From an uncultured bacterium (lineage in GTDB: Bacteria > Bacteroidota > Ignavibacteria > OLB7), in assembly GCA_966128725.1 (NCBI GenBank), contig CBHYLN010000002.1, forward strand, positions 23,711-87,710: 64,000 nucleotides of DNA. The letters are read 5' to 3'. The position numbers and the translations under genes were made by a program. Of this stretch, positions 1,685 to 43,029 are shown piece after piece. Within the stretch, counting starts at the first letter, position 1; every line of letters starts with the position of its first letter. The notes under the pieces were generated by a model. The model was not told where the DNA came from. It ran no database searches and was given only the letters and a program-made list of their open reading frames with translations.

Positions 1685-1758
1685 TGGGCGATGTAGGACT
1701 CGAACCTACGACCTCTTCGATGTGAACGAAGCGCGCTAACCAACTGTGCCAATCGCCC
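1685..1758 (-). tRNA. tRNA-Val: tRNA-Val (anticodon CAC)
   Basis: Reverse complement GGGCGATTGGCACAGTTGGTTAGCGCGCTTCGTTCACATCGAAGAGGTCGTAGGTTCGAGTCCTACATCGCCCA folds into a cloverleaf: 7-bp acceptor stem, anticodon stem CTTCG/CGAAG with loop TTCACAT, and a GTTCGAGTC T-loop. CCA is not encoded. Confidence 0.85.
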
Positions 1759-2442: not shown

Positions 2443-2582
2443 CCGAATATCGGAACAGGTTATGGATGAACGAAGAATGAAGGAATGACGACGGACGACT
2501 CGCGATCGCGGCCGCGGGTCACCGGCAGGGCACGCGCCCGGCCGCCGGCCTTTGGCTGGAACCGTCGCCTGGCGGCGCGCGG

Positions 2583-3125: not shown

Positions 3126-3308
3126 CGAACAATCCTTTGATATTGAGGCGCCAACTTACGCAATTGCGGCGGATCGCGTTCCCGCGCGGTGCGCGCGCAA
3201 ACCGATGGTGGCGCATCAGGCAAATTCGCCGGGTGCGCCACCATGCACGGCCGTTGTTGTTCGCGCCGGGCCTTGCCCCGTGTGCGGAAGCTACCGCCTG
3301 ACAGGCTG

Positions 3309-25056: not shown

Positions 25057-25180
25057 TGTATTCTCCGTGTCGATTGTAGATTACTCGCCAGTCCGTCGCC
25101 GGGTGGCCGGCAACGGGGCAACGGGCAGTGGCGAACATGGCCCAACCCTGTAACCCGAAACGTTGAACCCTGCATTATTC

Positions 25181-25909
25181 ATGAGACGTGTTCTTCCGAT
25201 TCTTCTGGCAGCGGCGCTGGCCGCGTGTGGCGGCGGCGACCAAAAGCCCGCCGATAAATCCCCCACGGTTCCGGACTCGGCATCACAGGCCGGGAAACCC
25301 GCCGGCGGTGATGCAGGCAAGGGCACAGCGGCGACCACCGGCGCCGGGCCTACGGCATCCGCGCGTCGGTTTGATCATCCGGCCGGCATCATCGAGATGA
25401 AAAGCCTTTCAGGGCCGAAGATCGAAGCGGTACTGTACTTCGAGGATTACGGCGCGCGCATGTCCACGCAGACCGATATCGTCGACAGCATGAACGGCAA
25501 GCCGCTTACCATCACCAATGTGAGCATCCTGAGCGATGGCGTAAGCGTGCTGTTCGATCCGGTAAAGAAGGTAGGCCGCCGAAGCACGCAGCCGGAGGGC
25601 ACGGTCAACTACTTCCCGAGATTCGAAACCCTGAGCGACAGTGCGCGCGCCGCGTTGAAGTGCCAGACGCTTGGCAAGAAGACTATTGCCGGCAAGGAAT
25701 GCACCGGGTACTCCATCGAGCGCAATGGCATCATCCTGAAGGTGTGGACGTGGGACGGGATTCCGCTGCGATCGGAGTCGATCTACGCGCCAAACCAGTC
25801 GCTTTTGCTGGAGGCTACCAACGTGAAGGTTGACGTTGCCGTGCCGCCGGACAAGTTCACGATCCCGGACGACATCCAGATAACCGACGTGCCGGCAAGC
25901 ATGCCGTAG
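25181..25909 (+). CDS. Lipoprotein, hypothetical
   Basis: ATG at 25181 gives MRRVLPILLAAALAACGG (lipobox). The track ORF starts at an upstream TTG. Confidence 0.55.
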   Translation: MRRVLPILLAAALAACGGGDQKPADKSPTVPDSASQAGKPAGGDAGKGTAATTGAGPTASARRFDHPAGIIEMKSLSGPKIEAVLYFEDYGARMSTQTDIVDSMNGKPLTITNVSILSDGVSVLFDPVKKVGRRSTQPEGTVNYFPRFETLSDSARAALKCQTLGKKTIAGKECTGYSIERNGIILKVWTWDGIPLRSESIYAPNQSLLLEATNVKVDVAVPPDKFTIPDDIQITDVPASMP

Positions 25910-25957: not shown

Positions 25958-25991
25958 CCGGCCGGTTGGCATGTCGTTGCCAACCGGCCGG
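25958..25991. terminator. Bidirectional hairpin (14-bp perfect palindrome stem) between convergent genes
   Basis: CCGGCCGGTTGGCA-TGTCGT-TGCCAACCGGCCGG. Confidence 0.5.
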
Positions 25992-26012: not shown

Positions 26013-26348
26013 CTAGTGGCCGCCGGGGCGGCAGCAGGGGCTGAGATGCTTCTGCGCGTCGGGGTCGGCCTTGGTGCTGTTTGCATCGTAGCCGGCGGCG
26101 GCGATTGCGTTCTCGATGGTCGACAGCGTAAGCTTGCCGCTGTCGAACTTTACCACGGCGCTTTTGGCATCCACATCGATCTTTACTTTCCGCACGCCCT
26201 TCAGGCGCTTCAGTGCCGAGCCAATCGTGGCCTTGCACGATCCGCACTGGATTGTCGGGAGCGAAATGGTCGCTTCCTGGATGCCGCCGGCAAGTACCGG
26301 CATGGCAAGCATCAGCATCAACAACAACGGTGTAATGACACGCTTCAT
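26013..26348 (-). CDS. Periplasmic heavy-metal-associated (HMA, MerP/CopZ-like) domain protein
   Basis: ATG at 26348 gives MKRVITPLLLMLMLAMPVLAGG (signal peptide). A single HMA fold with LPTIQCGSCKATI (CxxC). Extra C-terminal ...SPCCRPGGH. Confidence 0.75.
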   Translation of the reverse strand: MKRVITPLLLMLMLAMPVLAGGIQEATISLPTIQCGSCKATIGSALKRLKGVRKVKIDVDAKSAVVKFDSGKLTLSTIENAIAAAGYDANSTKADPDAQKHLSPCCRPGGH

Positions 26349-26479
26349 CACATGACTCCTGGATATGTGTTCGGTTGGTTGATTCGCGATTTCGTCGATT
26401 GATCCCGTCACGCAGGCGGGATGCCGCGTGAACGGTACGATAGATCCAACAACGTACGGCAATGCCCTGCCGGGTTCCG

Positions 26480-28708
26480 TTACTCCGTCTCCTCACCGCC
26501 CAGTCGCAGCCTGATGCCCACGAACACCTCCCGTCCCTCAACAGGCCCCCACACCTGGCTTCCGTCCACATGGCCCTGGGCCACCTGGAATGCCAGCGGC
26601 ATTGTATCGCTCTGGCGGATGTCCAGCAAATTTGTGGCGCCCGCATACAATGCCACAATACCCAGCCATTGCTCGGCGCGGAAGTTCACAAGCAGATATG
26701 GGTCGGACTTCGTGACCGCCGCGGGGTTGGCACGAAGTGTCTGCGAGCCAACCCAACTTGCCCACGTCTCCGCCGTGAAGCCCGCAGCACGGTTGGCATA
26801 CATGGCCGTGGCGTCAACGTTCACGGTTGGGGCAAGCGGTACCGGCTGATAATCACCGCCGGATTGTTCGGTTGCGTAGTCGATTACCTGGCAGGCCAGC
26901 GAGCCGCTCCAGTGTTCGCCGAACGTGGGGCGCAACTGAATCTCGAACCCTCGCAGCCGTGTGCCAAGCGGATTGTTCTCGTACATAAGCGTGCCGGCGG
27001 CCAGGGAGTCGGGGTTGGGCATTGCCTTACCGATGATGCGTGTTGTATACGCATTTACGTTGAGATCGGCTCCGCCAGCGTCGCCTATCAGGAATCGATA
27101 GCTGGCGTCGGCATTCAACGTGATGGCACGTTCGTATCCGAACGACGGGTTCGAGCGCCATCGATAGATACCGTGAAGCACGCGATGATCCTCATCGAAC
27201 AATGCCTCGGCCTTGAAGCCCTGCCCTGCCATAAGGCGCATCGTGAACTGCCCCTCGGGCCGGAAGCGGATTGCGGCCCTGGGCGAGATCAGCAGTCCCG
27301 CCGAGGAGTGATGATCGGCGCGCAGCGCCGTCAGCAGGCTCCATGGGCCACCTAAGGCAAGTTCGCTCTGCACGTAGGCTGCCCACAACGTGTTCGAGTA
27401 TCCAATCCCCAGCGCGCTGTGTTCGGTCACTTGATCGTGGTGTGCCTGGATGCCTGCCACAAACGACGCTGCATCAAACGTGGTGGTGTAGGAAAGCTCG
27501 GCGTGTGCCGTACGTTGGTCGGCGTCCAGAAGGGTGGAACCGTAGTTGGCGGTGACGCCAACCAGTGATGCCGCGGCACGCAGTGCGATGTCGGACGATT
27601 CGTCCAGCGTCCGACCGATGGACACCAGCAGGTCGTAACGCGAAATATCGGAGCGTTCGTTATAGGTCTCGCCGCTCGTTCCTTCGCCGTGTGTTCCGGT
27701 CCGTTTGTCGTTGCCGACAAGGCCGGTGGCAATCAGCTCGGTGACATCGTCGAGCAACACGTTGGCCTTCAGCAGGCCGGAGAACCGTCGCCAGCCAGCC
27801 GAGGTCGGGGCGTCGGATGCGGAGTGATCGGAATACGATCCGAACGCCGCTATGCCGGCCGGACCGGCTACCCCGGTATACGAGGCGTTGATGTCGGCGG
27901 CGTCAGGCGCCCATGGCTCGCGGCCGGCCATTGTGGCGCTGAAGCCGAACTCCGGTATCTCGGTGGGCGGGCGTGTCTCCAGGTTTACAACGCCGGAAAC
28001 AGCCCGGTTGCCGTGCAGGGCGCTCGAGGCTCCCTCCACGATGCGGATTGTTTGAAGCGCCGTGGCCGGTATCATCGGCAGGCCGTACATGGTCGACAGG
28101 CCGGAGAACAGCGGCGCGCCATCGAGCGTCACGCTTACGTACGTTGGCTCCAGCCCGCGCAGCCGGGTGAAGCCGGCATTGTCCACCGCGCAAATCACAC
28201 GTGCGGCGGTACACGAACTGTAGCGCGCCAACGCATCGGCTGCCGTTGGAGCAAATGGCGCGTGCTGTTGCACCTCGTCGCGAATGGATTCCACGCGGCA
28301 GCAGGCGTCCTCTACCGAACGCGTGCGGCGCACCGCGCGCACTTCCACCTGTGGCGCCGTGGGCGCGGCTTCCTGCAATTCGATCAGCAGGTAATCGGAT
28401 GTGGGCTCCACCACCGTGCGTTGTGGCTCAAATCCCACGTGGCTGACCGCGATGCCAACGGCCGTGTTGAATGGCAGCGTGATCGAGAACGTGCCCGCCT
28501 GGTCGGTGATGGCTCCGTGTGGCAGGGCACTTGAATCGACAGCCGAGAATGCGCGGACCGTTGCGCCCGCCAGCGGATTCTGGTCGGCATCAAGAACCAG
28601 ACCGTTTATCGTTCTGGTTTGCGCGCGTATTGCGCCCGTGGCAATGCACAGGAACATTGCGGCAACGGCCGTTCGCACACCCGGGGTGGTAATTCTGAAG
28701 GATGACAT
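26480..28708 (-). CDS. TonB-dependent outer-membrane receptor with an N-terminal carboxypeptidase-regulatory-like domain (SusC/OprC-like)
   Basis: 742 aa. Signal peptide, INGLVLDADQNPLAGATVRA (CarbopepD_reg-like), plug domain, and a C-terminal beta-barrel ending in an aromatic residue. Confidence 0.85.
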   Translation of the reverse strand: MSSFRITTPGVRTAVAAMFLCIATGAIRAQTRTINGLVLDADQNPLAGATVRAFSAVDSSALPHGAITDQAGTFSITLPFNTAVGIAVSHVGFEPQRTVVEPTSDYLLIELQEAAPTAPQVEVRAVRRTRSVEDACCRVESIRDEVQQHAPFAPTAADALARYSSCTAARVICAVDNAGFTRLRGLEPTYVSVTLDGAPLFSGLSTMYGLPMIPATALQTIRIVEGASSALHGNRAVSGVVNLETRPPTEIPEFGFSATMAGREPWAPDAADINASYTGVAGPAGIAAFGSYSDHSASDAPTSAGWRRFSGLLKANVLLDDVTELIATGLVGNDKRTGTHGEGTSGETYNERSDISRYDLLVSIGRTLDESSDIALRAAASLVGVTANYGSTLLDADQRTAHAELSYTTTFDAASFVAGIQAHHDQVTEHSALGIGYSNTLWAAYVQSELALGGPWSLLTALRADHHSSAGLLISPRAAIRFRPEGQFTMRLMAGQGFKAEALFDEDHRVLHGIYRWRSNPSFGYERAITLNADASYRFLIGDAGGADLNVNAYTTRIIGKAMPNPDSLAAGTLMYENNPLGTRLRGFEIQLRPTFGEHWSGSLACQVIDYATEQSGGDYQPVPLAPTVNVDATAMYANRAAGFTAETWASWVGSQTLRANPAAVTKSDPYLLVNFRAEQWLGIVALYAGATNLLDIRQSDTMPLAFQVAQGHVDGSQVWGPVEGREVFVGIRLRLGGEETE

Positions 28709-28789
28709 GATGAACCTGCATTTGGAACATGGATAATGCTCCGCATGCGCATCGCTGCGCCTGCGGAAGGTGTGATGATCATGTTCCGA

Positions 28790-29248
28790 TCAACAGGGAG
28801 GGTGGTCCGGGATGGTTTGTGCGCCCGTTTGAAGCCGGGATGCCAGAGGCGCGGGATAGCTGTCGTGTGTGCCCTGCATGGTGCCGGTGGATGCGCCGCA
28901 CGGAGCGGCCAGTGCCACAAAGCAGCAGGCGCATACCCCGGTGCATCCGTCGGCGGCGGCATTGCCGTTGTGATGCGCCGGCCGCGAATCTCCGGGCCGT
29001 TGCGCCTTGCCCGCGACCGGCCCGCGATCCGCCTGATGCTGCCCGCATTCCGGCGTTTCGACGCCGCAATCGCAGTGATCATCACAGTCATCGGCCGGGC
29101 CGGAATGGCAGGGTGTTTCGGCAATGCAGCAGCCGGCGGCGCCCGCAGTTGTTGCCAGCGCCGACCCTCCGGTGGCCAATGCGACCAGCACCGCCAGAAG
29201 CAGAGCCAGGATGCGGCCGAGGCGCGAATATGTTGCCCGGGTATTCAT
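28790..29248 (-). CDS. Secreted Cys/His-rich small protein (hypothetical metal-binding), immediately upstream of the TonB receptor
   Basis: ATG at 29248 gives MNTRATYSRLGRILALLLAVLVALATGGSALA... then GCCIAETPCHSGPADDCDDHCDCGVETPECGQHQ...GCTGVCACCFVALAAPCG. GC3 ~75% supports coding. No recognisable family. Confidence 0.5.
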   Translation of the reverse strand: MNTRATYSRLGRILALLLAVLVALATGGSALATTAGAAGCCIAETPCHSGPADDCDDHCDCGVETPECGQHQADRGPVAGKAQRPGDSRPAHHNGNAAADGCTGVCACCFVALAAPCGASTGTMQGTHDSYPAPLASRLQTGAQTIPDHPPC

Positions 29249-29424
29249 AAAGCGCAAAAAGATACAACGGATCGGCAAATCCCGGCGTGTGCATTCTCCG
29301 GTGTGGCGCGTGCCCGCCTGTCGCGATGGCTGCGGTGCCGCCGTGCGCGCCGCGCGGTATCTCCGGGGCAATCCCGAACACATCCTGTTGTTTTCTATGG
29401 GCGCGCAATCGTACTTTAGGGCCC

Positions 29425-29886
29425 GTGACTATCAGGGCACTCATAACGCTTGGCACAATTTTCGGCCTGCTTGCGTTCGCGGTTGTACCGCTTCCGCTTG
29501 CCTGCTGCGAAGTTGCCGTTGCTGCACAATCCGCTGTGGTTGCGGCTTCGCCGGGGTGTTGTGGTGCGCCCAAGGCCGACTGCCATTGCGCGAAGTCGGT
29601 TCAACGGGCAGCCACGCCAATCCTTGGCAACGGCATATGTTGCATAGGCTCCGGCCCGCTTTCCTGCGACTGTCCCAGTGTTGCCTCTGCTTCGGTCGAC
29701 GCGCTTCCGCCACTCAACCTTGCCATCCAGCTTCCGGTTGTTGCCTTCAATGCCAACCGCATGCCATTGCCGGCTTTAACGATGGTTCACGGTTGGGGCC
29801 GCGTCTGCCGTGTTGGATCCTCGCCGCCACATCTTGCGGCCACCATGCACCGTACCTATCTCCGCATCGAGTCCTTGTTGATTTAG
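29425..29886 (+). CDS. Cys-rich small membrane-anchored protein (hypothetical), divergent from 28790-29248
   Basis: GTG at 29425 gives VTIRALITLGTIFGLLAFAVVPLPLACCEV...SPGCCGAPKADCHCAKS...GICCIGSGPLSCDCPS. It shares GCC...DCHC/HCDC/SCDC-type motifs with the divergent neighbour. Codon bias is weaker, so it is less certain. Confidence 0.3.
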   Translation: MTIRALITLGTIFGLLAFAVVPLPLACCEVAVAAQSAVVAASPGCCGAPKADCHCAKSVQRAATPILGNGICCIGSGPLSCDCPSVASASVDALPPLNLAIQLPVVAFNANRMPLPALTMVHGWGRVCRVGSSPPHLAATMHRTYLRIESLLI

Positions 29887-30160
29887 CACACCGCCACCTG
29901 GCGATGGCTGTTGATTCACCGAGCCCGACCATACGCATTGCGTTCGATGGCGCTCGGGAAGCCGTTGCCGTATCCCCAATAATTCCTGCTTCACATCGCG
30001 CGCGCTGAAGGCGTGTTGCTGGCCCGGCGTGAACCGCTTGCAACGTGTAGTGCCACGGCCGGATGCACGGCGCGCATGTGTCAACCGATGCCGTTCATCA
30101 ACGTGCCGGTACCGCTTCGGTGCGGTTGCCGGTTAGCCCATCATTTTTTGTTGGCGGAGC

Positions 30161-31537
30161 ATGTTGGCATACAAACGCTCATCATGGCGCTTCCGATTGT
30201 GCGCAGCGCTGGCATTGTGTCTCGCGCTGCTGGCCGTGCCGGCGTTGCGGGCGCAACCGCGGGCCGATACGCTTTGGCTTGGCCGGGACGATCTGCTGAA
30301 GATGCTGCGCGAGCGCGACCCGTTGTTTGCGCGCGGGCATGCTCTGCGCACACAGGCCGACGCCGAGCGAGCCCGATACGGAAGCTGGTTTCCGGGATAT
30401 CCGCAACTGGATTTCGAGCGCGTAACCGACGCCCCGTTTCATAACAACGGCGACGGGGGCTGGAGCCTTGGCCTGAATCAGGAGTTCGACATCTCGGGAC
30501 GCTTTGGCGCCCGTATGGCGGCCGCGCACGCAGCCGGGGGCGAACTGAGTGCCGACGCCGATCTTGCCGACGCGGATGCAGCCACGCGGGGGCAGGCACT
30601 GTTCGCGCGTTTGATTGTGGCCAACGAACGCATGCGTCTTACCGGGCTGTTGGCCGCAGCTGCCATGCGCCTGGATTCGCTTGCGGCGCGGTTGCTGGCT
30701 GCCGGTGAAATCTCCGAACTGGATCGCAATCTGGTGCGCATCCAGCGCGTTCAGGCCACGATCGAGGCCGAGCAGGCCACGGGGCGCATGGCGGCCGAAC
30801 AGGCCGATCTGCGACTGGCGTTCGGTATCGGCCGCGACACGGTGGTTGCGCCGAAACCGGGCTACGAGGATGTCGCGACCGCGTTGCTTGATTCGGCGGC
30901 CGCGTTCGAGGCAGGTGTTGCGCGCGGTGATGCTGATGTGCTTGCGCGCCGGCCCGAGTGGCGTGCGCTGCAGGCTCGTGCCCAGCGTTTGCGTGCCGAG
31001 CGCGATATCGCGGCTCGAAGCTGGGTGCCGAATGTCCGGCTTGGCCTGGCGCTGCACTCCGAAAGTATGGTGCTGCGTGGTGAGGATATCACCGGCAGCG
31101 AAGTTGTGCGCTCGGGATTTACGCGGCTGGCCTCAACCGACATGTTGCTCGGTGTGAACGTTGGCCTGGCGGTACCGCTGCCGATTAACGGGCTGTATCC
31201 TTCGGCTGGTCAGGAAGTGGCCGTTGCCGAGGGCGAACTGGCGCTGGTGGATGCCGACCGTGCCGTGTTGGTTGGGGGCATCCGGCGCGAGCTTGCACAT
31301 GCAACCGAACGCTTGCGCGCGGCCGCGCGTGGCCTGCGAGCGTATCAACAGGAGATAGTGCCGATTGTGGCGCGTAATCTGGAGCTGGCCGAGCGCGGGT
31401 ACGCGGCGGGTGAACTGAGCGCCTCGCAAGTGGTGCAACTGCAGGATCAATTGATGCGCACCGGCACGATGGCCATCGAACTGCGAATGGAACTGGAGCA
31501 GGCGGTCGCCGATGTGAATCGTGTAATGGGCAGATAG
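30161..31537 (+). CDS. czcC: TolC-family outer-membrane efflux protein (CzcC-like) of a heavy-metal RND system
   Basis: 458 aa. Signal peptide, two-repeat OEP architecture, followed by MFP and RND genes. Confidence 0.8.
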   Translation: MLAYKRSSWRFRLCAALALCLALLAVPALRAQPRADTLWLGRDDLLKMLRERDPLFARGHALRTQADAERARYGSWFPGYPQLDFERVTDAPFHNNGDGGWSLGLNQEFDISGRFGARMAAAHAAGGELSADADLADADAATRGQALFARLIVANERMRLTGLLAAAAMRLDSLAARLLAAGEISELDRNLVRIQRVQATIEAEQATGRMAAEQADLRLAFGIGRDTVVAPKPGYEDVATALLDSAAAFEAGVARGDADVLARRPEWRALQARAQRLRAERDIAARSWVPNVRLGLALHSESMVLRGEDITGSEVVRSGFTRLASTDMLLGVNVGLAVPLPINGLYPSAGQEVAVAEGELALVDADRAVLVGGIRRELAHATERLRAAARGLRAYQQEIVPIVARNLELAERGYAAGELSASQVVQLQDQLMRTGTMAIELRMELEQAVADVNRVMGR

Positions 31538-31555
31538 CGCAGAACTATACCGACT

Positions 31556-32254
31556 ATGGAACGAGAGATGATAGATCAACGGATCGATCCCAACCGGTCG
31601 CGGGGGCAGGCGCCTGTTATGGTGCCGTGGCTGTGCGCGCTGGTGTTGGTGGGGCTTGTGGCGAGCGTTCGTGATGTGTGGGCGCATGGCGGCGAGGATC
31701 ACGATCATCCCGCCGTTGCGGCTCCGTCGGCGGTTTCGGCGGGCACGCTCACCACGTTTGGCGTTTCGCCACGATACGAGCTGTTGATGAAGTACGAGGC
31801 GACCGAGGCCGATCACCCGGTAACGGTGCGACTGTTCCTCTGCGACTTCGCAACAAACCGTCCGGTGGAAGGCGCGTTATTCGTGTTTGCATCCAAGCCG
31901 GCGGGCGCGCGTTCGATCGAGGCCCCGCGCATGACGTCGCCGGGCGTATATCAGGCCACGATGACGTTTCCCAACGACACTGTCTACAGCCTGACCGCCA
32001 CGTTCTCGGTGGGCGATCAAAGCGAGACGATCGCGTTGCCGGCTGTGTACGCCGGCGAGGCGGCCGAGCACATTCTTGGCCAGCATACGGAATCCTCAGC
32101 CAACGGAGCCGGGCTGGGCGGCCTGTGGTGGCCAATCGCAATCGGCGCGGGTGCGCTTGTAGCCGTGGCGGTCTGGCTGGCGCGCCGCGCGCGAAAGCCG
32201 AGCGGCGGCAACAACGGACCAACGTTCAACAATCAACAGGGGAGCGGAGTATGA
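31556..32254 (+). CDS. Hypothetical membrane protein with an AHGGEDHDH His-rich motif, inserted between czcC and czcB
   Basis: N-terminal TM (WLCALVLVGLVASV) followed by AHGGEDHDHP, and a C-terminal TM (WWPIAIGAGALVAVAVWLARRARK). Its stop overlaps the czcB start (ATGA). Confidence 0.5.
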   Translation: MEREMIDQRIDPNRSRGQAPVMVPWLCALVLVGLVASVRDVWAHGGEDHDHPAVAAPSAVSAGTLTTFGVSPRYELLMKYEATEADHPVTVRLFLCDFATNRPVEGALFVFASKPAGARSIEAPRMTSPGVYQATMTFPNDTVYSLTATFSVGDQSETIALPAVYAGEAAEHILGQHTESSANGAGLGGLWWPIAIGAGALVAVAVWLARRARKPSGGNNGPTFNNQQGSGV

Positions 32255-33411
32255 ACATGCGTACATCACGATCGCGTCGTCCGCGTTGGGGGCGTACGCT
32301 GCTTGCCGGTGCGGTTGCCCTGTGCGTTGTGCTGGGCCGTTTGCTGGCGCATGGCGGCGAGGACCATGGAGACGCCGAACATGGTGCCGCCACGGCCAAC
32401 GGGCCGATGGCTACCACGATAAGCGTGGTCAAGGAGCAGCAGTTCGCGATTGGATTGCTCACCGAGCCGGCTGCCCGGCACCCGATGGGCGTTGGCATTA
32501 CCGCAACAGGGCGTGTTGTGCCGCGCACCGATGCGGTAGCCGATGTGATTCCCCCGATTGCCGGGCGTGTGGTGGGCGGTCGCCTGCCGCGCCTGGGGGA
32601 GCGTGTGCGGCGCGGAGAGGTTCTGTTCCGTGTACAGCAGGTGCTTGCACCAACCGAGCGCACGGCGCTGCGCCTGGAGCAGGTGAAAGCCAAGGCGGAA
32701 GTTGATGCGGCCCAGCGCGAGGTGGATCGATTGGTGCGTCTGGAGGGCGTTGTCGCGGCCAAGCAGTTGCTGGATGCCCGTGCCCGGCTGGCCTCGGCAC
32801 GCGAAGCAGCAACCGCCATCGCCGCCCAACTTCAGGGCGCGGGCACGGCGGTTGCCGTTGTTGCGCCAATCAGCGGAACCATCACCGCCGCCGACATCGC
32901 CGACGGTGAAATCCTTGATGCTTCGCGCCGGGCGTACAGCATCGCCAATCTCGACCACGTGTGGGTTGAAGCCGATGTGTTTGAAGCCGACCTTCCGAAA
33001 GTGCAGGGCGTGCGGGCCGTTGAGGTAACAACCCCCGCATATCCGGGCCGGACGTTCGCTGGCACGCTGTATCGCCTGGGCAGCGTTGTGGACCCCTCCA
33101 GCCGGGCGATCACCGTGCTGCTGGATGTCCGAAATCCCGACGAGCTGTTGAAGCTGAACATGAGCACGAGCGTTGTGCTGGCCGCTGGTGCGGCGCAGGA
33201 GGAGATCGCCATCCCGCAGAGCGCTCTGGTTCGGAGCGGCGCGCGTACCGTGGTGTTTGTGCATACGGCGCCCGAGGAGTTCCAGGTGCGCGACGTGCGA
33301 ACCACCGGCGCGGCTGCGGGCGGATACGTTGCGGCAAGCGGCATCGGCCTGGGCGAACGTGTTGTTGTCAGCGGCGCCCATCAGTTGAAGGCCGTCGCGG
33401 GCCTGCAATAG
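32251..33411 (+). CDS. czcB: Efflux RND periplasmic adaptor (membrane fusion protein, CzcB/CusB-like)
   Basis: ATG at 32251 (RBS GGAG). HlyD-like barrel-sandwich/beta-barrel blocks. The N-terminus (TM plus AHGGEDHGDAEHG) echoes the preceding ORF. Confidence 0.85.
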   Translation: MNMRTSRSRRPRWGRTLLAGAVALCVVLGRLLAHGGEDHGDAEHGAATANGPMATTISVVKEQQFAIGLLTEPAARHPMGVGITATGRVVPRTDAVADVIPPIAGRVVGGRLPRLGERVRRGEVLFRVQQVLAPTERTALRLEQVKAKAEVDAAQREVDRLVRLEGVVAAKQLLDARARLASAREAATAIAAQLQGAGTAVAVVAPISGTITAADIADGEILDASRRAYSIANLDHVWVEADVFEADLPKVQGVRAVEVTTPAYPGRTFAGTLYRLGSVVDPSSRAITVLLDVRNPDELLKLNMSTSVVLAAGAAQEEIAIPQSALVRSGARTVVFVHTAPEEFQVRDVRTTGAAAGGYVAASGIGLGERVVVSGAHQLKAVAGLQ

Positions 33412-33463
33412 GCGTTATCCATCCGATTTGATGATTGCTCCGATATAATGATCCGAGGAACTC

Positions 33464-36400
33464 GTGCTTAACTCGCTGATACTGTTCTCGCTTCGGAACC
33501 GTCCGCTTGTGCTGGCCGCGGCCGCGCTGTTGCTTGCCTACGGGGTGGTGGTGCTTACACGGCTTCCTGTGGATGTGCTGCCCGATCTGAACCGGCCAAC
33601 GGTTACCGTGATGACCGAAGCCCACGGCATGGCGCCCGAGGATGTGGAACTGTTGGTGTCGCGGCCCATCGAGTCCTCGATGAACGGAGCGTCGGGCGTG
33701 GAGCGGGTGCGGTCGGTATCGTCGATGGGGCTGTCCATCGTGTTTGTGGAGTTCGATTGGGGAAGTGATCTGTACCGCGATCGCCAGCTTGTGGCCGAGC
33801 GTCTGAGCGCTGTCCGCTCCAGCCTTCCCGCCGAGATCGTTCCGCAGCTTGGCCCGATTACTTCCGTGATGGGGCAGATCATGCTGGTGGGCCTCTCCGC
33901 CGACACCACCAGCCCGATGGCATTGCGGACGTTGGCCGATTTCACGGTGCGGCGCCGGCTGCTTACGATTCCGGGCGTGGCCCAGGTGACAACGATCGGC
34001 GGCGAGGTGAAGCAATTCCAAGTGGTTGCCAAGCCGTCGCAGTTGAAGGCGTTTGGTGTTTCGCTGGACGAACTGGAACAGGCCACGGCCCGTGCAAGCG
34101 CTGCCACCACCGGCGGTTACGTGGAGATCGGCGCGCAGGAGTATCCGATACGGAACCTGGCCCGCGCGGCTAACGCGGCCGACGTGGCGGCAACAGCGAT
34201 CCGCGTTTCCAACGGCGTTCCGGTAACCATCGGTCAGGTTGCCGATGTGCGCGAGGCTGCCGCACCCAAGCGCGGCGATGCCTCGGTAAACGCGCGCCCG
34301 GCTGTCATCCTAGCGGTGGAGAAGCAGCCCGACGCAAGCACGCTGGAGTTGTCGAAGCTGGTGGATTCGGCCTTGGCGGAGCTGAAGCCCAGTCTGCCGC
34401 GCGACGCACGAATCGACGCGCACGTGTTCCGGCAGGCGGATTTTATCGACAACGCAATCGGCAACGTGGAGGAAGCCCTTCGCGATGGTGCGATACTGGT
34501 TACGATTGTTCTGTTGCTGTTCCTGCTGAATGTGCGTACAACGGCGATCACGCTGACGGCAATACCACTTTCGATGGTGATCACCGCGCTGGTGTTCTGG
34601 CTGTTCGGCATCTCGATCAACACGATGACCCTTGGTGGGCTTGCTGTTGCCATCGGCGAGGTTGTGGACGATGCGATCGTTGATGTGGAGAATGTGTTCC
34701 GGCGACTTCGCGAGAACCGCGAAGCCGAACGCCCGCTGCCGGCGTTGACGGTTGTGTACCTGGCGTCGAGCGAGGTGCGGAATTCCATTGTGATCGCCAC
34801 GGTTCTGGTGGTGCTTGTGTTTGTACCGTTGTTCGCGTTGCAGGGGATGGAGGGGCGGATCTTCGCTCCGCTGGGCATTTCCTATGTGACGTCGATCGTG
34901 GCGTCGCTGCTGGTTTCGCTGACGGTTACGCCGGCGCTGGCGTCGTACCTGCTGCCGCGCTCGCGCGCGCTTGGCCGTGCCGAACGCGACAGTCCGCTTG
35001 TGCGCTGGTTGAAACAAATCGATCGCCAATTGCTGGAGCGCGTTCTTGCACGCCCCGTGCTGGTGATGGCTTCGGCGGCGCTCCTGTTCGCCGGAGCGGT
35101 TGCGATAATCCCGATGCTTGGCACCGAATTCCTCCCGCCCTTCAACGAGGGGTCGCTTACAATCAGCGTGGTGCAGCCGGCGGGCACATCGCTAAGCGAA
35201 TCCAACCGTATCGGCACGATGGTGGAGCGTCTGCTTGCCTCGGTGCCCGAGGTTGTTTCCGTTGCGCGCCGAACCGGCCGCGCCGAGTTGGATGAACATG
35301 CCGAGGGTGTGAACTCCAGCGACGTGGAGGTGCGCCTGCGGCCGGGCGATCGCGAGCAGGCGGCCGTGCTGGCCGATGTGCGCGCGCGTCTGGCGCTGGT
35401 GCCCGGCGTGGTGATCAACATCGGCCAACCGATCTCGCACCGGCTGGATCATCTCCTCTCCGGCGTGCGCGCGCAGATCGCCGTGAAGATTTTTGGCGAC
35501 GATCTTGGTGTGCTGCGGGCAAAGGCGGAGGACGTTCGCCGCGCGATGGCGCTGGTGCCCGGCGTGGTGGATCTTTCGGTGGAGCCGCAGGTGCTTCTGC
35601 CGCAAATCCCCATCGCCATCGATCGTGTTGCAGCCGCGCGATATGGAATGGCGCCCGGGGAGGTTGCCGAGCAACTGGAAACGGCACTCAGCGGCAGGCA
35701 GGTTGGTGCTGTTCTGGATGGGCAGCGAAGTTTTGCGCTGGTTGTTCGGTCGGATTCGGCGGCACGGCTTTCGCTGGACCAGATAAGCGCGTTGACCGTG
35801 GCAACCCCAACCGGGGCTCATGTGCCGGTACGTGAGCTGGCCCTGGTGGAATGGGGCAGCGGCCCAAACCAGATCCTGCACGAAAACGGGCAGCGCCGCA
35901 TCGTGGTGCAAGCCAATGTGGCCGGCCAGTCGTTGGGTGAAGTCATCTCGGGCATCAAGAGCTCCGTTGCCTCGCGTGTTGCGTTGCCCGAGGGGTACTT
36001 CATTACCTACGGTGGGCAGTTCGAGTCACAACAATCGGCGACACGCCTGTTGATGCTGCTGGCGGTGATGGCGGTGGTTGGGATGTTCGCCGTGTTGTAC
36101 GCGCATTTCCGGAGTGCGCGAATCGTGCTGCAGATTCTGCTGAACATACCTCTGGCGTTGGTTGGGGCGGTGGTGGCGATCACGCTTACCGATGCAACGA
36201 TATCGGTGGCAACCATTGTGGGCTTCATTACGCTTACGGGCATCGCGTCGCGCAATGGGATCATGATGATCTCGCACTATCTGCACCTGATGCGCGAGGA
36301 AGGCGAGGGGTTCACTCGCGAGATGATCGTCCGCGGTTCGCTGGAACGGCTGGTACCGGTGCTGATGACCGCACTGACCGCCGGGCTTGCCCTGATTCCG

Positions 36401-36646
36401 CTGGGATTGGCGCACGGTGCTCCGGGCAAGGAGATTCTGCATCCGGTTGCGATTGTGATCCTCGGTGGGCTGGTTTCCTCAACCCTGCTGGATATTTTCC
36501 TTACACCGGCCGTCTTCTGGCGCTTCGGGCGCACGGCCGCGCAGCAGTACTTCGAGCGCCGTGCCGCCAGCACGGTTACCGCTGTTGCCCCAACTGCAAA
36601 CGACGAACATCCCAATACCAATACATCTATCAGGAGTGAATCATGA
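33464..36646 (+). CDS. czcA: Heavy-metal efflux RND transporter, CzcA/CusA family
   Basis: 1060 aa, 12-TM RND architecture, N-terminus MLNSLILFSLRNRPLVLAAAALLLAYG typical of the HME-RND family. Confidence 0.95.
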   Translation: MLNSLILFSLRNRPLVLAAAALLLAYGVVVLTRLPVDVLPDLNRPTVTVMTEAHGMAPEDVELLVSRPIESSMNGASGVERVRSVSSMGLSIVFVEFDWGSDLYRDRQLVAERLSAVRSSLPAEIVPQLGPITSVMGQIMLVGLSADTTSPMALRTLADFTVRRRLLTIPGVAQVTTIGGEVKQFQVVAKPSQLKAFGVSLDELEQATARASAATTGGYVEIGAQEYPIRNLARAANAADVAATAIRVSNGVPVTIGQVADVREAAAPKRGDASVNARPAVILAVEKQPDASTLELSKLVDSALAELKPSLPRDARIDAHVFRQADFIDNAIGNVEEALRDGAILVTIVLLLFLLNVRTTAITLTAIPLSMVITALVFWLFGISINTMTLGGLAVAIGEVVDDAIVDVENVFRRLRENREAERPLPALTVVYLASSEVRNSIVIATVLVVLVFVPLFALQGMEGRIFAPLGISYVTSIVASLLVSLTVTPALASYLLPRSRALGRAERDSPLVRWLKQIDRQLLERVLARPVLVMASAALLFAGAVAIIPMLGTEFLPPFNEGSLTISVVQPAGTSLSESNRIGTMVERLLASVPEVVSVARRTGRAELDEHAEGVNSSDVEVRLRPGDREQAAVLADVRARLALVPGVVINIGQPISHRLDHLLSGVRAQIAVKIFGDDLGVLRAKAEDVRRAMALVPGVVDLSVEPQVLLPQIPIAIDRVAAARYGMAPGEVAEQLETALSGRQVGAVLDGQRSFALVVRSDSAARLSLDQISALTVATPTGAHVPVRELALVEWGSGPNQILHENGQRRIVVQANVAGQSLGEVISGIKSSVASRVALPEGYFITYGGQFESQQSATRLLMLLAVMAVVGMFAVLYAHFRSARIVLQILLNIPLALVGAVVAITLTDATISVATIVGFITLTGIASRNGIMMISHYLHLMREEGEGFTREMIVRGSLERLVPVLMTALTAGLALIPLGLAHGAPGKEILHPVAIVILGGLVSSTLLDIFLTPAVFWRFGRTAAQQYFERRAASTVTAVAPTANDEHPNTNTSIRSES

Positions 36647-36849
36647 ATCACGAAACAATTGTGATTGAGGGCATGAGCTGTGGTGGCTGTGTCAACAGTG
36701 TACGCAAGGCGCTGGAGCGCCTTGAGGTTAACGTGGTGGAGGTTACCATCGGAACGGCGACGGTTGAATACGATCCCGCCGCAACTTCACGCGAAACCCT
36801 GGTGGAAGCCATTGTAGATGCGGGCTTCGATGTGCCCGCGGTTGAATGA
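36643..36849 (+). CDS. copZ: Copper chaperone, CopZ-like (single HMA domain)
   Basis: 68 aa with IEGMSCGGCVNSV (MxCxxC). Overlaps the czcA stop (ATGA coupling). Confidence 0.85.
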   Translation: MNHETIVIEGMSCGGCVNSVRKALERLEVNVVEVTIGTATVEYDPAATSRETLVEAIVDAGFDVPAVE

Positions 36850-38021
36850 TGTGTACCAAAATGAACGAACAACAGAAGCGGGAGACAGGAATGATGATTG
36901 CATCCAGAAAGTGGTTCGGGTATGACGGGCGTACCTGCTGGCGCTGGTGCTGCACGGCCATGTGCCTGGCGATGACGGTCTTTACGGTAGTTGGTTGCGG
37001 CGGTGGTGATGCTCCGAAGTCGGGATCGGCCGACTCGGCGACCGCCACGCCCGCCGCCGATGGTGACCACCATCATGCCAACGCAGCGGAGGAAGCCGCC
37101 GTGCATACACATTCCACGGATATGACGGTGACCTCCGAGCCAGCCACAATCGCGCCGGGCGTGCCGACCACGATGACAATCAATATCGTGGAGAAGAATG
37201 GCGGTGCTCCCGTACAGGCGTTTGATACGGTGCACGAGAAGTTGCTGCATATGATTGTGGTGTCGGCGGACATGACATGGTTCAACCATGTGCATCCGGT
37301 GTATGCCGGCAATGGCCGATTCAGCATCCAGATTGCGCTGCCGAAGGCTGGCGAGTACTACATGTACGCGGATTACACACCGGCTGGCAAGGAGCACGAA
37401 ATCGCACAGCACAACTTTACGGTTACCGGAAGCGCTGGCTCCGCACCCAAGGAGGCCGTGGTGGATTCGCTTGGCGGACAGCCGTGGATAGTGAAGAGTG
37501 TTGGCTCGGCCCCGGAAGGGCACCCCGAACAGGCCACCGCCGCAACGTATCAGGTTGCGTTGATGCCCATGCCCGGCCACCTCGTGGCAGGCCAGGATGC
37601 CATGCTGCATTTTCAGGTGCGTGATGCGGCGGGCAAGCCGCTTGGTGATCTTGAACCGTACCTTGGCGCAATGGGCCATGCGGTGATTCTCTCGACCGAC
37701 GGCAAGGTGTATCTGCATACACATCCGATGGAGGACGGGATGGATCACGGTACCATGAAACATGGCGGTGGCGAACACGGGGCAATGAGCAAGGCTCCTC
37801 CCGTTGGCGGCGCCAATGCGGGGACAATGGGCCGGGGCTTCGCGGCCGGGGCCGAGCAGGACAATGCCCCAGCGGCAAAGAAACCTGCCGCCAAAGGCGC
37901 GGATGTTGTCTTCCACACGAATTTCCCACTGCCAGGGCGTTATCGTGTGTGGGGCCAGTTCCAACACCGCGGCAAGATTATTACCGTGACGTATCTGTTG
38001 GAAGTTGCGCCGGCGGCATAA
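36846..38021 (+). CDS. His/Met-rich periplasmic lipoprotein (putative Cu/Ag-binding), hypothetical
   Basis: Lipobox VVGCGG. Motifs HTHPMEDGMDHGTMKHGGGEHGAMS, WFNHVHPVY and GDHHHANAAEEAAVHTH. Translationally coupled to copZ (ATGA). The start is 36846 or Met16 (36891). Confidence 0.65.
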   Translation: MMCTKMNEQQKRETGMMIASRKWFGYDGRTCWRWCCTAMCLAMTVFTVVGCGGGDAPKSGSADSATATPAADGDHHHANAAEEAAVHTHSTDMTVTSEPATIAPGVPTTMTINIVEKNGGAPVQAFDTVHEKLLHMIVVSADMTWFNHVHPVYAGNGRFSIQIALPKAGEYYMYADYTPAGKEHEIAQHNFTVTGSAGSAPKEAVVDSLGGQPWIVKSVGSAPEGHPEQATAATYQVALMPMPGHLVAGQDAMLHFQVRDAAGKPLGDLEPYLGAMGHAVILSTDGKVYLHTHPMEDGMDHGTMKHGGGEHGAMSKAPPVGGANAGTMGRGFAAGAEQDNAPAAKKPAAKGADVVFHTNFPLPGRYRVWGQFQHRGKIITVTYLLEVAPAA

Positions 38022-38064
38022 CAGGCCACGGGCAGCTTCGGGTTTACGGGCGACAGTACAATGC

Positions 38065-38112
38065 GGGCATGGTGGTAAGCCTTCGGGTTTGCCGCCGTGC
38101 CCGTTTTTTGTT
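38065..38112 (+). terminator. Rho-independent terminator closing the czc-copZ-lipoprotein operon
   Basis: GGGCAUGGUGGUAAG-CCUUCGG-GUUUGCCGCCGUGCCC stem (G·U wobbles) followed by GUUUUUUGUUG. Confidence 0.7.
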
Positions 38113-38698: not shown

Positions 38699-39346
38699 TC
38701 ACCGTACCTGCGCCCTGATATACCAGTAAGCTTCGATCACGCTCGCGAACTGCGCGCCGGGGTATTCCACGCGACCATAGTTGCCGACGTTCTCCGGCGA
38801 GGGCCATGGGTCGCGTACCACAACCGAGGCAATTACCGGCCCGGACCGTGTTTGCAGGAAGCTTGCGGCGGTAATCACCACTGCGTGACCACTGCCCGGC
38901 CCGGAGCGATATCCTGCAAGAACAGGATGCCCCTGGCTGAGCTCACGCAACAATACTGATGGCGTTGGCGCACCCCAGTTCATCGAGGATGCCACAACGT
39001 ACGGGTTGCCGGCATTGTCCACATTCCAGTTGTTCAGATTGGCGGTGATCGCCGGGAAGCTCCCGGCCCAGTTCGGCAGGCGGCCATATGGATCCGAGCC
39101 ATAGGTGCGCGCCACGATCTGCTCCTGAGATATGTCGACGCCATAGTAGTTCAGCACCATCTGGATGGATGCCGCCCAGCACCAGTTGGAGTTGCGCTGC
39201 GAGGCGGCGTAGAAGTTCATTTTCGACGACTGGATACCAACGTACTGTGCCTGGGGCTGGTACGAGTAGTACTGTGCCTGCGCCGCCGGCGAAGCAATGC
39301 CGGCCAGTGCAAGGAGAATCCAGATCAGATATCGCTTCGGGCTCAT
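38699..39346 (-). CDS. Secreted papain-like cysteine peptidase, C39-like domain
   Basis: ATG at 39346 gives MSPKRYLIWILLALAGIASPAAQAQ (signal peptide). NWCWAASIQMVLNYYG (catalytic Cys) and GHAVVI (His). Confidence 0.6.
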   Translation of the reverse strand: MSPKRYLIWILLALAGIASPAAQAQYYSYQPQAQYVGIQSSKMNFYAASQRNSNWCWAASIQMVLNYYGVDISQEQIVARTYGSDPYGRLPNWAGSFPAITANLNNWNVDNAGNPYVVASSMNWGAPTPSVLLRELSQGHPVLAGYRSGPGSGHAVVITAASFLQTRSGPVIASVVVRDPWPSPENVGNYGRVEYPGAQFASVIEAYWYIRAQVR

Positions 39347-39589
39347 CACGTTCGTTCGGGAATTATGTGCGGGCGCATCCAAGGCCGATGCATGCGGTCG
39401 TGGCGTCGGGCTGCCACGGGGCCTGCCGGAATGACGCAACGCCATTGTCTGCGTGACAATTACGACGGTGCCGTTACCCTACCCCCCGGGCATCGCAGGC
39501 AACTTTGGTAATTGGCGCCATCAAACGCAAGGCATCGTATGGTATGACGTGATATCGATTGCCCGGTTCCCGAACGACGGTGGTTGGCC

Positions 39590-42345: not shown

Positions 42346-43029
42346 GTGTCAGCGATGCGAAAAGCGGAACACTATACTCCAGATGCTGCCTCGGCTGCGC
42401 GGGATTCGCGTGATGAGGCTTTGTTCGCACGGTTTGTAGCCGGCGACGAGCGAGCATTCAAGGAGTTATACTCTCATTACGAGCGTCCGCTGATCCTTTA
42501 CTGCCGTCACATGCTCTCCACGGAACAGGAGAGCCAGGATGTATTCCAGGAAGTTTGGCTTCGTGTGATACGCATCCGGACACGCGGCGAACGAGTGGAG
42601 AGATTCCGCGCGATGCTCTTTACAATCGCTCGCAATGCGGCGATCAATCATCTTCGAAATCGTCAACACGCTCAGTACCCTGTCTCACTAAGCCAGGTGA
42701 ACATCGAGAGCAACCCCGCTCTCGCGACGAGCGAAAACTTCGACGAGATGGAAGATCTGGTTAATCGGGCGTTGAAGCGGCTTCCCGACTCTCAGCGTGA
42801 AGCGTTTGTGCTCCATTCGATGCTGGGATATACGTTCCAGGAGATTGCCGATATGCAGGGCGTGACGATGACCGGGGCGAAAACCCGCGCATTCCGAGCT
42901 CGCTGCTACCTGCGCACCCTATTGTCGAACTGGCTCGGGTTGGCCGAGGATGCCGATGACAATGTCACCGCGTCCAAGCCATCCGAACAATCACCCCAAT
43001 TTGAGTCAGAAGATCATGAAAACGGCTGA
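42346..43029 (+). CDS. RNA polymerase ECF-type sigma factor (sigma-70 regions 2 and 4)
   Basis: LYCRHMLSTEQESQDVFQEVWLRV (region 2) and EIADMQGVTMTGAKTRAFRARCYLR (region 4 HTH). The start is GTG 42346 or ATG 42355. Confidence 0.85.
   Translation: MSAMRKAEHYTPDAASAARDSRDEALFARFVAGDERAFKELYSHYERPLILYCRHMLSTEQESQDVFQEVWLRVIRIRTRGERVERFRAMLFTIARNAAINHLRNRQHAQYPVSLSQVNIESNPALATSENFDEMEDLVNRALKRLPDSQREAFVLHSMLGYTFQEIADMQGVTMTGAKTRAFRARCYLRTLLSNWLGLAEDADDNVTASKPSEQSPQFESEDHENG

Follow-up and report, generated by a model that had tools for sequence, protein, structure and literature searches.

Ten genes in a 64-kb window of DNA from an uncultured bacterium of the Bacteroidota (Ignavibacteria, OLB7; contig CBHYLN010000002.1) form two divergent operons, each of which is closed by a strong terminator: C-B-A on the minus strand and D-E-F-G-H-I-J on the plus strand. 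The window is the whole stretch of 64,000 nucleotides that was analysed, and all positions refer to it. We propose that the two operons serve one thiophilic transition metal, most likely copper, and that each of them is controlled in cis by the cysteine-rich leader that heads it; we put the probability of this reading at about 0.5. On the minus strand, leader gene C is followed by the genes for a TonB-dependent receptor (B) and a periplasmic HMA protein (A). On the plus strand, gene D precedes the genes for a tripartite pump of the heavy metal efflux resistance-nodulation-division (HME-RND) family (E, G and H) and for the proteins F, I and J. The gene list is based on the listing of open reading frames (ORFs), their translation and Pfam/NCBIfam scans of the window, and a set of 80 loci carrying related HME-RND pumps (L001 and others) is the basis of all counts out of 80. 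The genes of a first-pass annotation were found at the places it had described: the minus-strand order of Cys-rich protein, TonB receptor and HMA protein as well as the exporter trio with a coupled CopZ and a His/Met lipoprotein were borne out, and gene D and the minus-strand terminator are additions to its list. Its statement that every gene of the block has a metal signature has to be qualified, since four of the ten proteins (C, D, F and J) match no Pfam family and carry such a signature at the level of motifs only.

The leader genes are proposed to act as metal sensors because a regulator protein is missing from the neighbourhood: Within about 20 kb on each side, there is no gene for a MerR-family, two-component or other regulator with the exception of an extracytoplasmic function (ECF) sigma factor (42346-43029). 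This factor was set aside as a candidate, as three unrelated genes lie in between and the receptor has no signalling domain. The ECF gene is followed by a 277-aa ORF without a family, possibly encoding an anti-sigma factor, and by the gene for a 722-aa OmpA-family protein, and this group extends to 45948. A known riboswitch, of the NiCo type or any other, can be excluded by the Rfam search, in which the window gave no match at the gathering score apart from one tRNA and the region 28600-30260 gave none at E <= 1. The first-pass annotation had assumed a binding site for a metalloregulator (CueR, CusRS or CzcRS) in an intergenic region at 29249-30160. This does not hold: the region is largely genic, as the conserved gene D sits inside it and makes up about half of it, and neither a regulator gene nor a conserved operator was found. 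What is left between the starts of C and D is a spacer of 176 bp (29249-29424), the presumed site of both promoters, which has no conserved block in comparison with L001 and contains only weak GC-rich palindromes. A sigma-70-like scan gave no match in this spacer, and the scan may not suit the phylum. Coding potential judged from the GC content at third codon positions (GC3) could not separate the ORFs across 28709-30160, and the assignment of genes was decided by homology instead.

Leaders that sense metals during their own synthesis have been described in two cases. In Rhodobacter capsulatus, a Cys motif of the nascent CutF chain senses periplasmic copper at a time when the ribosome is still positioned on a C-terminal proline motif (10.1101/2022.11.11.516240), and the copper-sensing leader CruR of Bordetella pertussis (Bp2923, DUF2946) follows the same nascent-chain principle (PMC9426467). 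Downstream control is exerted by a stem-loop masking the ribosome binding site (RBS) in the case of CutF and by Rho termination in the case of CruR (10.1101/2022.11.11.516240; PMC9426467). CutF-like genes most often precede genes for outer-membrane efflux proteins and next those for TonB-like proteins; after normalising for the available proteomes, 40% of the CutF-like set belongs to the Bacteroidota, and leaders of the Cys type head copper loci whereas His-only leaders head nickel/cobalt loci (10.1101/2025.02.05.636593; 10.1101/2022.11.11.516240). By their sequences, C and D are built like CutF/CruR-type nascent-chain sensors, with an export signal, a Cys cluster, a fixed spacing from this cluster to a PP motif and a position at the head of an operon. 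When viewed through the rule set of Ozturk et al. (a signal peptide or an Nin-Cout anchor, PP among the last 15 residues and fewer than 150 aa), both proteins carry the export signal and both are Cys-rich leaders upstream of a receptor gene (C, 81 nt) or an outer-membrane factor gene (D, 274 nt).

C (28790-29248, minus strand) is an exported Cys-rich protein of 152 aa that starts with MNTRATYSRLGRILALLLAVLVALATGGSALA, its export signal being judged by eye from the hydrophobic stretch. The sequence CACC (28922-28933) is followed by 40 residues and then by PPC-stop (28790-28801), which places PP at -3/-2; with the chosen start, the length of 152 aa is just beyond the filter of <150 aa. A profile search in 5.8 billion clustered proteins identified only four C homologs, from three independent lineages, and every one of them is encoded directly upstream of the same receptor family. 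At 27-32% identity, these proteins still have in common the export signal, a Cys/His cluster that closes with CxCC, the 40 residues and the ending [DE][HQ]PPC-stop. Even the last codons, CCT CCC TG(T/C) TGA, are the same in four of four homologs, and CCT accounts for only 3-6% of the Pro codons in these genomes. The spacing from the Cys cluster to the arrest motif is thus conserved as it is in CruR, with 40 residues in 4/4 C homologs and 49-53 in the D homologs.

The closest published counterpart of the minus-strand operon is CruR-BfrG-Bp2921, in which an exported Cys-motif leader with a C-terminal PP motif also heads the operon of a TonB-dependent transporter and in which the distance from Cys to PP is fixed as well (45 residues in CruR, 40 in C; PMC9426467). 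There are differences, however: C ends in PPC-stop and has a CxCC motif, whereas CruR ends in RAPP plus three residues and has CXXC; the third gene codes for an HMA protein here and for a PepSY protein there; and the spacer is 81 nt long with an RBS-occluding stem here, as opposed to 162 nt with Rho-dependent termination in cruR. The short spacer with its occluding stem would fit translational control. In this respect, C resembles CutF, with which it shares the signal peptide, the Cys motif, the C-terminal proline motif and a stem-loop after the stop codon that masks the start of the next gene, although the genes downstream of the leaders are a receptor gene and an RND operon here and that of a multicopper oxidase in the case of CutF. 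As compared to the CutF-like set, C exceeds the length limit, D has its PP motif at -20, and both belong to tiny families without a Pfam model.

The stretch of leader RNA that begins with the PPC-stop of C and ends with the AUG of B (28706-28801, minus strand) is predicted to fold with a minimum free energy of -35.7 kcal/mol (z = -3.32), and only one of 200 shuffled sequences was as stable. An outer helix pairs 28793-28797 with 28715-28719 and a second one pairs 28780-28787 with 28724-28731; the helix begins at or just past the stop codon of C, and its partner sequence lies 5-15 nt before the receptor AUG. The arms are GGAACAUG/CAUGUUCC plus CCUGU/GCAGG in the window, UUCACUGUAGAAG/CUUUACAGUGAA in L001 and CUGUAACCAU/AUGGUUACAG in L081. 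L001 and the loci L081 and L082 thus have the same stem topology with different, covarying arm sequences. The closing duplex is better than in shuffled sequences in L001 (p = 0.006; whole-leader z = -2.75), in L081 (p = 0.003) and in L082 (p = 0.02).

D (29425-29886, plus strand; 153 aa) heads the efflux operon. It starts with MTIRALITLGTIFGLLAFAVVPLPLA, its export signal again being judged by eye from a hydrophobic stretch, and contains three CC pairs, CHC and CDC (29665-29673), followed by 50 residues, SSPP (29818-29829) and a 19-residue tail ending in LLI-stop. True homologs are few: they were found in L001 (tblastn, E = 1.3e-9), in P0128 (full-library phmmer, E = 1.5e-10), in L003 and in L025. 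A single-sequence search with D gave no matches, the full phmmer search gave two real relatives in addition to repetitive false matches, and D and its L001 homolog match nothing in Pfam at E <= 10. In the homologs, 49-53 residues separate the last Cys from PP (exactly 50 in the window, L001 and L025), and a tail of 10-19 residues ending in LLI or ILV follows. A rule-based scan of the 80 loci revealed that ORFs with a D-like build also head the pumps in L017, L024, L026, L061 and L066. Those of L026, L061 and L066 have PP and a tail ending in FLI or LLI, and those of L017 (LRAPPISIC) and L024 (LRGPPALAIT) have the classical RAPP-type ending, RAPP/RGPP being present only in these distant relatives. 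This shared build and the RAPP/RGPP-ended relatives suggest that D belongs to a loose superfamily of CutF-like leaders. On the Kapaibacterium contig of L003, a gene for a 764-aa BNR/sortilin-repeat protein (1936-4230) is inserted between the D-like leader and the gene for the outer-membrane factor, so the leader is not always directly beside the efflux genes.

We suggest the following mechanism: With the ribosome still on the C-terminal proline motif, the nascent chain of the leader would expose its Cys cluster on the outer side of the membrane, and binding of the metal to this cluster would alter the dwell time of the ribosome at the motif. A ribosome paused on the PPC-stop of C would cover the 5' arm of the stem, melt it and free the start of the receptor gene for translation. 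The same principle is proposed for D. The ribosome arrest and the sign of the regulation, like the identity of the metal and the direction of transport by the receptor, are parts of this proposal.

Several observations speak against the leaders being regulatory. First, the closing duplex of the window itself is no better than in shuffled sequences (p = 0.27), the whole-leader z-scores of L081 and L082 are weak (-1.59 and -0.75), and the covariation is anecdotal since there are only three independent C lineages. Second, the endings HPPC and QPPC of the C proteins are outside the tested arrest motifs, and the proline motif of CutF alone is only a weak staller (10.1101/2022.11.11.516240; 10.1101/2025.02.05.636593). 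Third, neither leader matches the PF11162-type profile of DUF2946 or has the CXXC/RAPP motifs of CruR: the motifs here are CxCC with PPC in C and CDC with SSPP in D, and C, its L001 homolog and D fail to match DUF2946 even at E <= 10 (for C and its L001 homolog, this holds for all of Pfam). Fourth, D is 153 aa long and its PP lies at -21/-20, outside the 15-residue filter, and the 274-nt spacer from D to E gives no structure signal (z = 0.07). As D has neither a terminal arrest motif nor a structured spacer, our confidence in it as a regulator is lower than that in C. Finally, a regulator that acts on the two operons may be encoded elsewhere in the genome. In the spacer downstream of D, just upstream of the start of E, there is a GC-rich hairpin, GCCGGUACCGC-UUCG-GUGCGGUUGCCGG (30100-30150), with a run of U 12-13 nt later; it looks like an attenuator, yet it fails the terminator rule of our scan.

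These weaknesses lead to the alternative that survives best, that C and D are ordinary secreted or tethered Cys-rich metal buffers or chaperones and that expression of the operons is constitutive or set from elsewhere. Both proteins would suit such a role, having an export signal and many Cys residues; the conserved 19-residue tail of D after PP suggests a function of the finished protein, no RNA structure was found in the spacer after D, and CzcI-type proteins have no proline motif. We nevertheless regard this explanation as unlikely, if far from negligible: conservation in C concerns its Cys cluster, the spacing and the final residues with their codons rather than a fold, the stem from the C stop codon to the receptor start recurs in the relatives, and both protein families are tiny and evolve fast, as would be expected of leaders. 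Moreover, CutF itself is undetectable as a stable protein.

The receptor B (26480-28708, minus strand) has an N-terminal CarboxypepD_reg domain followed by the plug and the barrel (Pfam). Its plug contains the motif EDACCRVES (28286-28312) with a vicinal Cys pair, and the plug start RRTR-S/T-VEDACCRVESI...QQHAPF...YSSCT...C is invariant among the window, L001, L081 and L082; the residues C136, C137, H149, C166 and C173 do not vary between the window, L001 and L081. B had been regarded as part of a NosA/OprC-type import module. Like OprC and NosA, it is a TonB-dependent receptor with conserved Cys, His and Met residues that is encoded in a metal locus, but no sequence similarity to them was detected: TIGR01778 is not among the 16 TonB-receptor models of NCBIfam that B matches, the best match in the PDB is the colicin I receptor (E = 2.7e-9) and OprC is not among the matches, and B differs by the CarboxypepD_reg domain and the CC plug motif. 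The assignment to the NosA/OprC type has thus to be given up.

The third gene of the operon encodes the periplasmic HMA protein A (26013-26348, minus strand; PF00403, E = 7.6e-16), in which a signal peptide is combined with a CGSC metal site (26235-26246) and a vicinal Cys pair at the C-terminus (PCCRPGGH, 26016-26039); with the L001 homolog, it shares 53% identity and the CC tail. The terminator of the operon (25958-25991, minus strand), a stem of 14 bp with 11 G-C pairs, begins 22 nt past the stop codon of A. The earlier description of A as an HMA protein with a signal peptide stands, but A does not qualify as MerP, because the best NCBIfam match, MerP TIGR02052, scores only 64 bits and is thus under the cut-off of 92.55, and no merT-, merA- or merR-like genes are present in the window. 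A role in mercury resistance, which MerP-like features of A and the vicinal Cys pairs might have suggested, was rejected for the lack of mer genes. B with its vicinal-Cys plug and A with its CC tail likely form a route for metal uptake and hand-over. Relatives of A with the CC tail are also encoded next to RND pumps in L005, L016 and L026, where there is no receptor gene nearby; A may therefore, as its relatives' positions suggest, work for the periplasmic metal pool as a whole and not just for the receptor.

On the other side of the spacer, E (30161-31537, plus strand; PF02321, E = 7.4e-21) is an outer-membrane factor similar to CzcC, CusC and NieC, G (32251-33411, plus strand; HlyD_D23, E = 2.1e-32; TIGR01730, 130 bits) is the periplasmic adaptor, and H (33464-36646, plus strand; TIGR00914, 790 bits at a cut-off of 701) is the HME-RND pump. 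The first-pass annotation had called this a CusCBA/CzcCBA exporter. The tripartite HME-RND part of this description is correct and, by the TIGR00914 signature, is what the system shares with CusCFBA of E. coli and with CzcCBA and ZneCBA of Cupriavidus; the CusA-like and classical CzcA-like parts are not. H scores 459 bits against ZneA and 446 bits against CusA (HME4), which puts it at about the same distance from both. In a phmmer alignment to 3t51/3k07, M573, M623 and M672 of CusA correspond to S568, S618 and H663, and H thus has no Cu(I)/Ag(I) methionine triad. Transmembrane helix 4 (TM4) of H, AIGEVVDDAIVDVEN (34649-34693), has AIG-DDA-VEN in place of DFG-DGA-VEN, the TM4 signature of CzcA and CnrA (HME1/2; PMC3637150), and it retains extra acidic residues. 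Furthermore, there is no CusF, and the accessory proteins F and J are unrelated in sequence to CusF or CzcI.

Instead, H has the motifs DEHAEGVN (35291-35314) and SHRLDH (35435-35452), which in the forms DEHAEGV[HN] and PISHR[LI]DHL recur in most of the 80 related pumps. HAEGVH and HRLDH at the proximal site are the hallmark of NieA of Cupriavidus neocaledonicus STM 6070, which is encoded in an operon of the order nieI-C-cep-B-A with an exported protein inserted between C and B, and for which a new HME class ('class 6') has been proposed (PMC7060636). The nie operon has the same order as D-E-F-G-H: a small first gene, the outer-membrane factor, an exported protein, the adaptor and the pump. 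Judged by the published motifs and the gene order rather than by an alignment of NieA, Cep or NieI, pump H belongs to the NieA clade and is neither CusA-type nor classical CzcA-type. It differs from NieA in having HAEGVN, with Asn for the last His; moreover, the operon here continues with genes for a CopZ-like protein and lipoprotein J, and its host belongs to the Bacteroidota/Kapabacteria group. E, G and H would thus constitute a NieCBA-type envelope efflux machine in which the periplasmic binding site of the pump would be made of His, Asp and Glu rather than Met.

The protein encoded between E and G, F (31556-32254, plus strand; 232 aa), corresponds in position to Cep. A signal peptide precedes the predicted mature N-terminus HGGEDHDH (31685-31708), which starts at His44, and an immunoglobulin (Ig)-like domain and a C-terminal membrane anchor follow. 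F has no Pfam family (the match to YtkA is weak, E = 0.064) and its family has no match in the PDB, but tblastn detected it in 47 of the 80 related loci. Cleavage is predicted after Ala, so that HGGEDH becomes the new N-terminus, and A-HGG-x-DH is invariant in the alignment of the family. The mature N-terminus of adaptor G begins with HGGEDH as well (HGGEDHGDAEHG, 32350-32385), and A-HGGEDH-G is present in 38/80 loci from several phyla, in F-like proteins, in adaptors and in F-adaptor fusions; a literature search found no paper that mentions the motif. Since HGGEDH is common to F and G, F may be a membrane-anchored periplasmic helper that passes the metal to the adaptor. The start and stop codons of F and G overlap (ATGA, 32251-32254). 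Fusions of F with the adaptor, encoded by ORFs of about 550-620 aa upstream of the RND gene, were seen in L008, L020, L037, L040, L044 and L068. F-adaptor fusion ORFs carry two A-HGGEDH-G motifs, the second of which is thus located inside the protein and not at a mature N-terminus.

Two further proteins are encoded downstream of the pump gene. I (36643-36849, plus strand; PF00403, E = 9e-13) is a CopZ-like HMA protein with an MSCGGC site (36673-36690) and no signal peptide, and it would act as a cytoplasmic chaperone; its homolog in L001 is 63% identical, and it reaches 42-53 bits with the CopZ exception models, which have cut-offs of 91-95. The translational coupling of copZ that had been claimed earlier is confirmed by an ATGA overlap of H and I (36643-36646). 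J (36846-38021, plus strand; start at 36846 or 36891) is a lipoprotein with the lipobox VVGC (36987-36998), a His/Met loop (37728-37787) and two Ig-like domains, each with a His cluster (WFNHVHP, 37278-37298; LHTHP, 37713-37727). An AlphaFold model (AF2, 94 sequences; mean predicted local distance difference test score 78.9) consists of two beta-sandwiches, for which the PDB offered only generic Ig folds as neighbours. H120, H133, H135, H240, H263, H276 and H278, in two HxHP-type clusters, are invariant. All of the 329 homologs of J found in the search are annotated as 'hypothetical', and they bear the names Kapabacteria, Chlorobi or Bacteroidetes. According to precomputed annotation, many of those with 40-55% identity contain the YtkA domain (PF13115), and in some homologs there is a fusion to HMBD or cupredoxin domains; J itself matches no Pfam family and gave no score with PF13115 (E <= 10). 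YtkA/CtaK of Bacillus subtilis acts in copper trafficking. J resembles it in being a lipoprotein with Ig-like domains and in the PF13115 matches of many homologs, but it has two domains with HxHP clusters plus a His/Met loop and is encoded in an efflux operon. The Ig-like domain of F is remotely similar to the first domain of J (hhalign, 85% probability), whereas BLASTP found no match between the two proteins. J would serve the pump as a His-cluster lipoprotein helper. Downstream of J, the operon ends in a terminator with a 19-bp stem and 11 G-C pairs (38063-38104, plus strand) followed by TTTTTGTTGT; the terminator that had been placed at 38065-38112 is thus real, with its T-run after the stem.

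Which metal is handled? In the first-pass annotation, the locus was called a copper or silver system. Nothing in it is specific to silver, and copper is a reasonable guess to which we give a slight edge over all other metals combined. Copper is suggested by the two HMA proteins A and I and by the vicinal Cys pairs in A, B, C and D, by the link of J homologs to YtkA, HMBD and cupredoxin domains, and by the company that related pumps keep: within 10 kb of the 80 pumps, CPC-type P1B ATPases are encoded in 25 loci, a multicopper-oxidase motif is present in 14 and YxCPMH in 41. What has to be set against copper is that Ni(II), Zn(II) and Cu(II) would all fit the His/carboxylate site of H and the HGGEDH motifs, HGGEDH not being thiophilic, and that the only published suggestion for the pump clade is nickel (PMC7060636). 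One of the divalent cations nickel, cobalt or zinc is therefore an unlikely but serious candidate for the metal.

The corresponding scenario, in which nickel, cobalt (or zinc) is bound by the His-rich sites of H, F, G and J and the receptor imports the same metal or a metallophore, is in our view a little less plausible than the idea that C and D are mere buffers. HAEGV(H/N) and HRLDH fit the nickel-type motifs H-X4-H and H-X3-H, as has been argued for NieA (PMC7060636), the HGGEDH motif and the His clusters of J are ligands for borderline or hard metals, and TM4 has its extra acidic residues. However, the nickel assignment of NieA is itself a prediction (PMC7060636), the CxxC or vicinal-Cys sites in A, B, C, D and I favour soft metals, and the CPC-type ATPases, multicopper-oxidase motifs and YtkA/cupredoxin fusions in the neighbourhoods of related pumps point to copper. 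Moreover, the published leaders that go with nickel/cobalt genes are of the His-only type, and those that go with copper genes are Cys-rich.

The comparison with relatives bears on the question whether the two arms belong together. In species-representative genomes, the closest pumps are those of Candidatus Kapaibacterium metagenome-assembled genomes (64-70% identity); that of L001 is 71% identical. L001 (CAYVWR010000005.1) is titled 'uncultured Alphaproteobacteria', a label that is probably wrong because its pump, its CarboxypepD_reg receptor and its neighbouring genes match Kapaibacterium/Bacteroidota. It keeps the whole order of a short-chain dehydrogenase/reductase (SDR) gene, the gene for lipoprotein U and A, B, C, D, E, F, G, H, I and J at about 40-70% protein identity, and on the left the synteny (SDR gene, lipoprotein U) reaches past the cluster. 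In contrast, L081 and L082 have C and the receptor without the efflux arm, and in L003 no receptor accompanies D and the efflux operon, which indicates that the adjacency of the arms is specific to this lineage. It is improbable, but conceivable, that the arms are functionally unrelated neighbours by an accident of this lineage and that the receptor imports some other cargo, such as a thiol-bearing metallophore or a different nutrient; the loci with a single arm and the A-like HMA proteins at RND pumps without a receptor in L005, L016 and L026 would fit this explanation. Yet the full arrangement is kept in L001 at only 40-70% protein identity, vicinal-Cys chemistry is common to A, B, C and D, and the HMA gene is co-transcribed with the receptor gene up to the same terminator.

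The block does not look recently transferred, and the earlier idea of a horizontally acquired island is not supported. The GC content is 0.63 in the cluster and 0.59-0.63 elsewhere, and the tetranucleotide distance of 0.14 is the highest of the window in a range of only 0.085-0.147. No integrase or tRNA gene was found at the cluster borders, and genes with housekeeping functions (methionine synthase, methylmalonyl-CoA mutase, tryptophan dioxygenase, SDR and ParB) flank the cluster. Given this mild deviation in composition, the borders and the flanks, together with the synteny in L001, there is no case for recent horizontal acquisition.

The reading from which the analysis started, a CusCBA-type Cu(I)/Ag(I) exporter next to a NosA/OprC-type importer under a classical metalloregulator (CueR, CusRS or CzcRS) binding at 29249-30160, can account for the exporter trio, CopZ, the His/Met lipoprotein, the divergence of the operons from a common spacer and the frequent copper-related genes around related pumps, but it is very improbable, as H has Ser, Ser and His at the positions of the CusA Met triad and a TM4 unlike that of CusA, the receptor matches neither TIGR01778 nor OprC, gene D takes up about half of the region proposed for binding, no conserved operator was found, and no MerR-family or two-component genes lie within about 20 kb on each side.

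Our proposal of two leader-controlled operons can be carried further: two unrelated, lineage-specific nascent-chain sensors would gate opposite fluxes of one metal without a transcription factor. Uptake and efflux would then be balanced purely by co-translational sensing of the periplasmic metal, and the D type, with PP and about 18 residues to the LLI-stop, would represent a new class of arrest or force-sensing leaders that is widespread ahead of NieA-type pumps in Bacteroidota. We consider this bolder version rather doubtful.

Some other features of the window were noted. The lipoprotein U gene (25163-25909, plus strand) has no Pfam family, is convergent with A and lies beside the terminator of the receptor operon (25958-25991); at the corresponding position, L001 has two copies of it in tandem (598-1392 and 1428-2279). 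Beyond the efflux operon, the segment 38105-38698 (about 600 nt) contains no convincing ORF, the sole one having a GC3 of 0.48 as compared to about 0.72 in real genes, and the only two matches of the sigma-70-like scan are located there. It is followed directly by a gene for a predicted exported papain-like cysteine peptidase (38699-39445, minus strand; Peptidase_C39_2, C70-like), which is not found at the same position in L001. A 1932-aa protein with Ig-like repeats (46162-51960, plus strand; HYDIN/VesB-like, DUF1573, ASH) has a FlgD_ig-like C-terminal end that suggests a secreted surface protein. The sole Rfam match in the window, a tRNA gene (1685-1758, minus strand), is far from the metal locus.

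The most interesting content of the locus is the back-to-back pair of leader ORFs together with several widespread, uncharacterised accessory proteins. Pumps like H should not carry Cus or Czc labels, and three parts of the system that are widespread and unstudied deserve attention: the 'cep' protein with A-HGGEDH, lipoprotein J and the TonB receptor with the vicinal-Cys plug. If the leaders act as we propose, one metal would switch uptake and efflux oppositely via two short ORFs and mRNA structure, in a Bacteroidota-related group whose translation initiation signals are unlike those of the studied proteobacterial models, and the CutF/CruR principle would extend to families beyond the current domain models.

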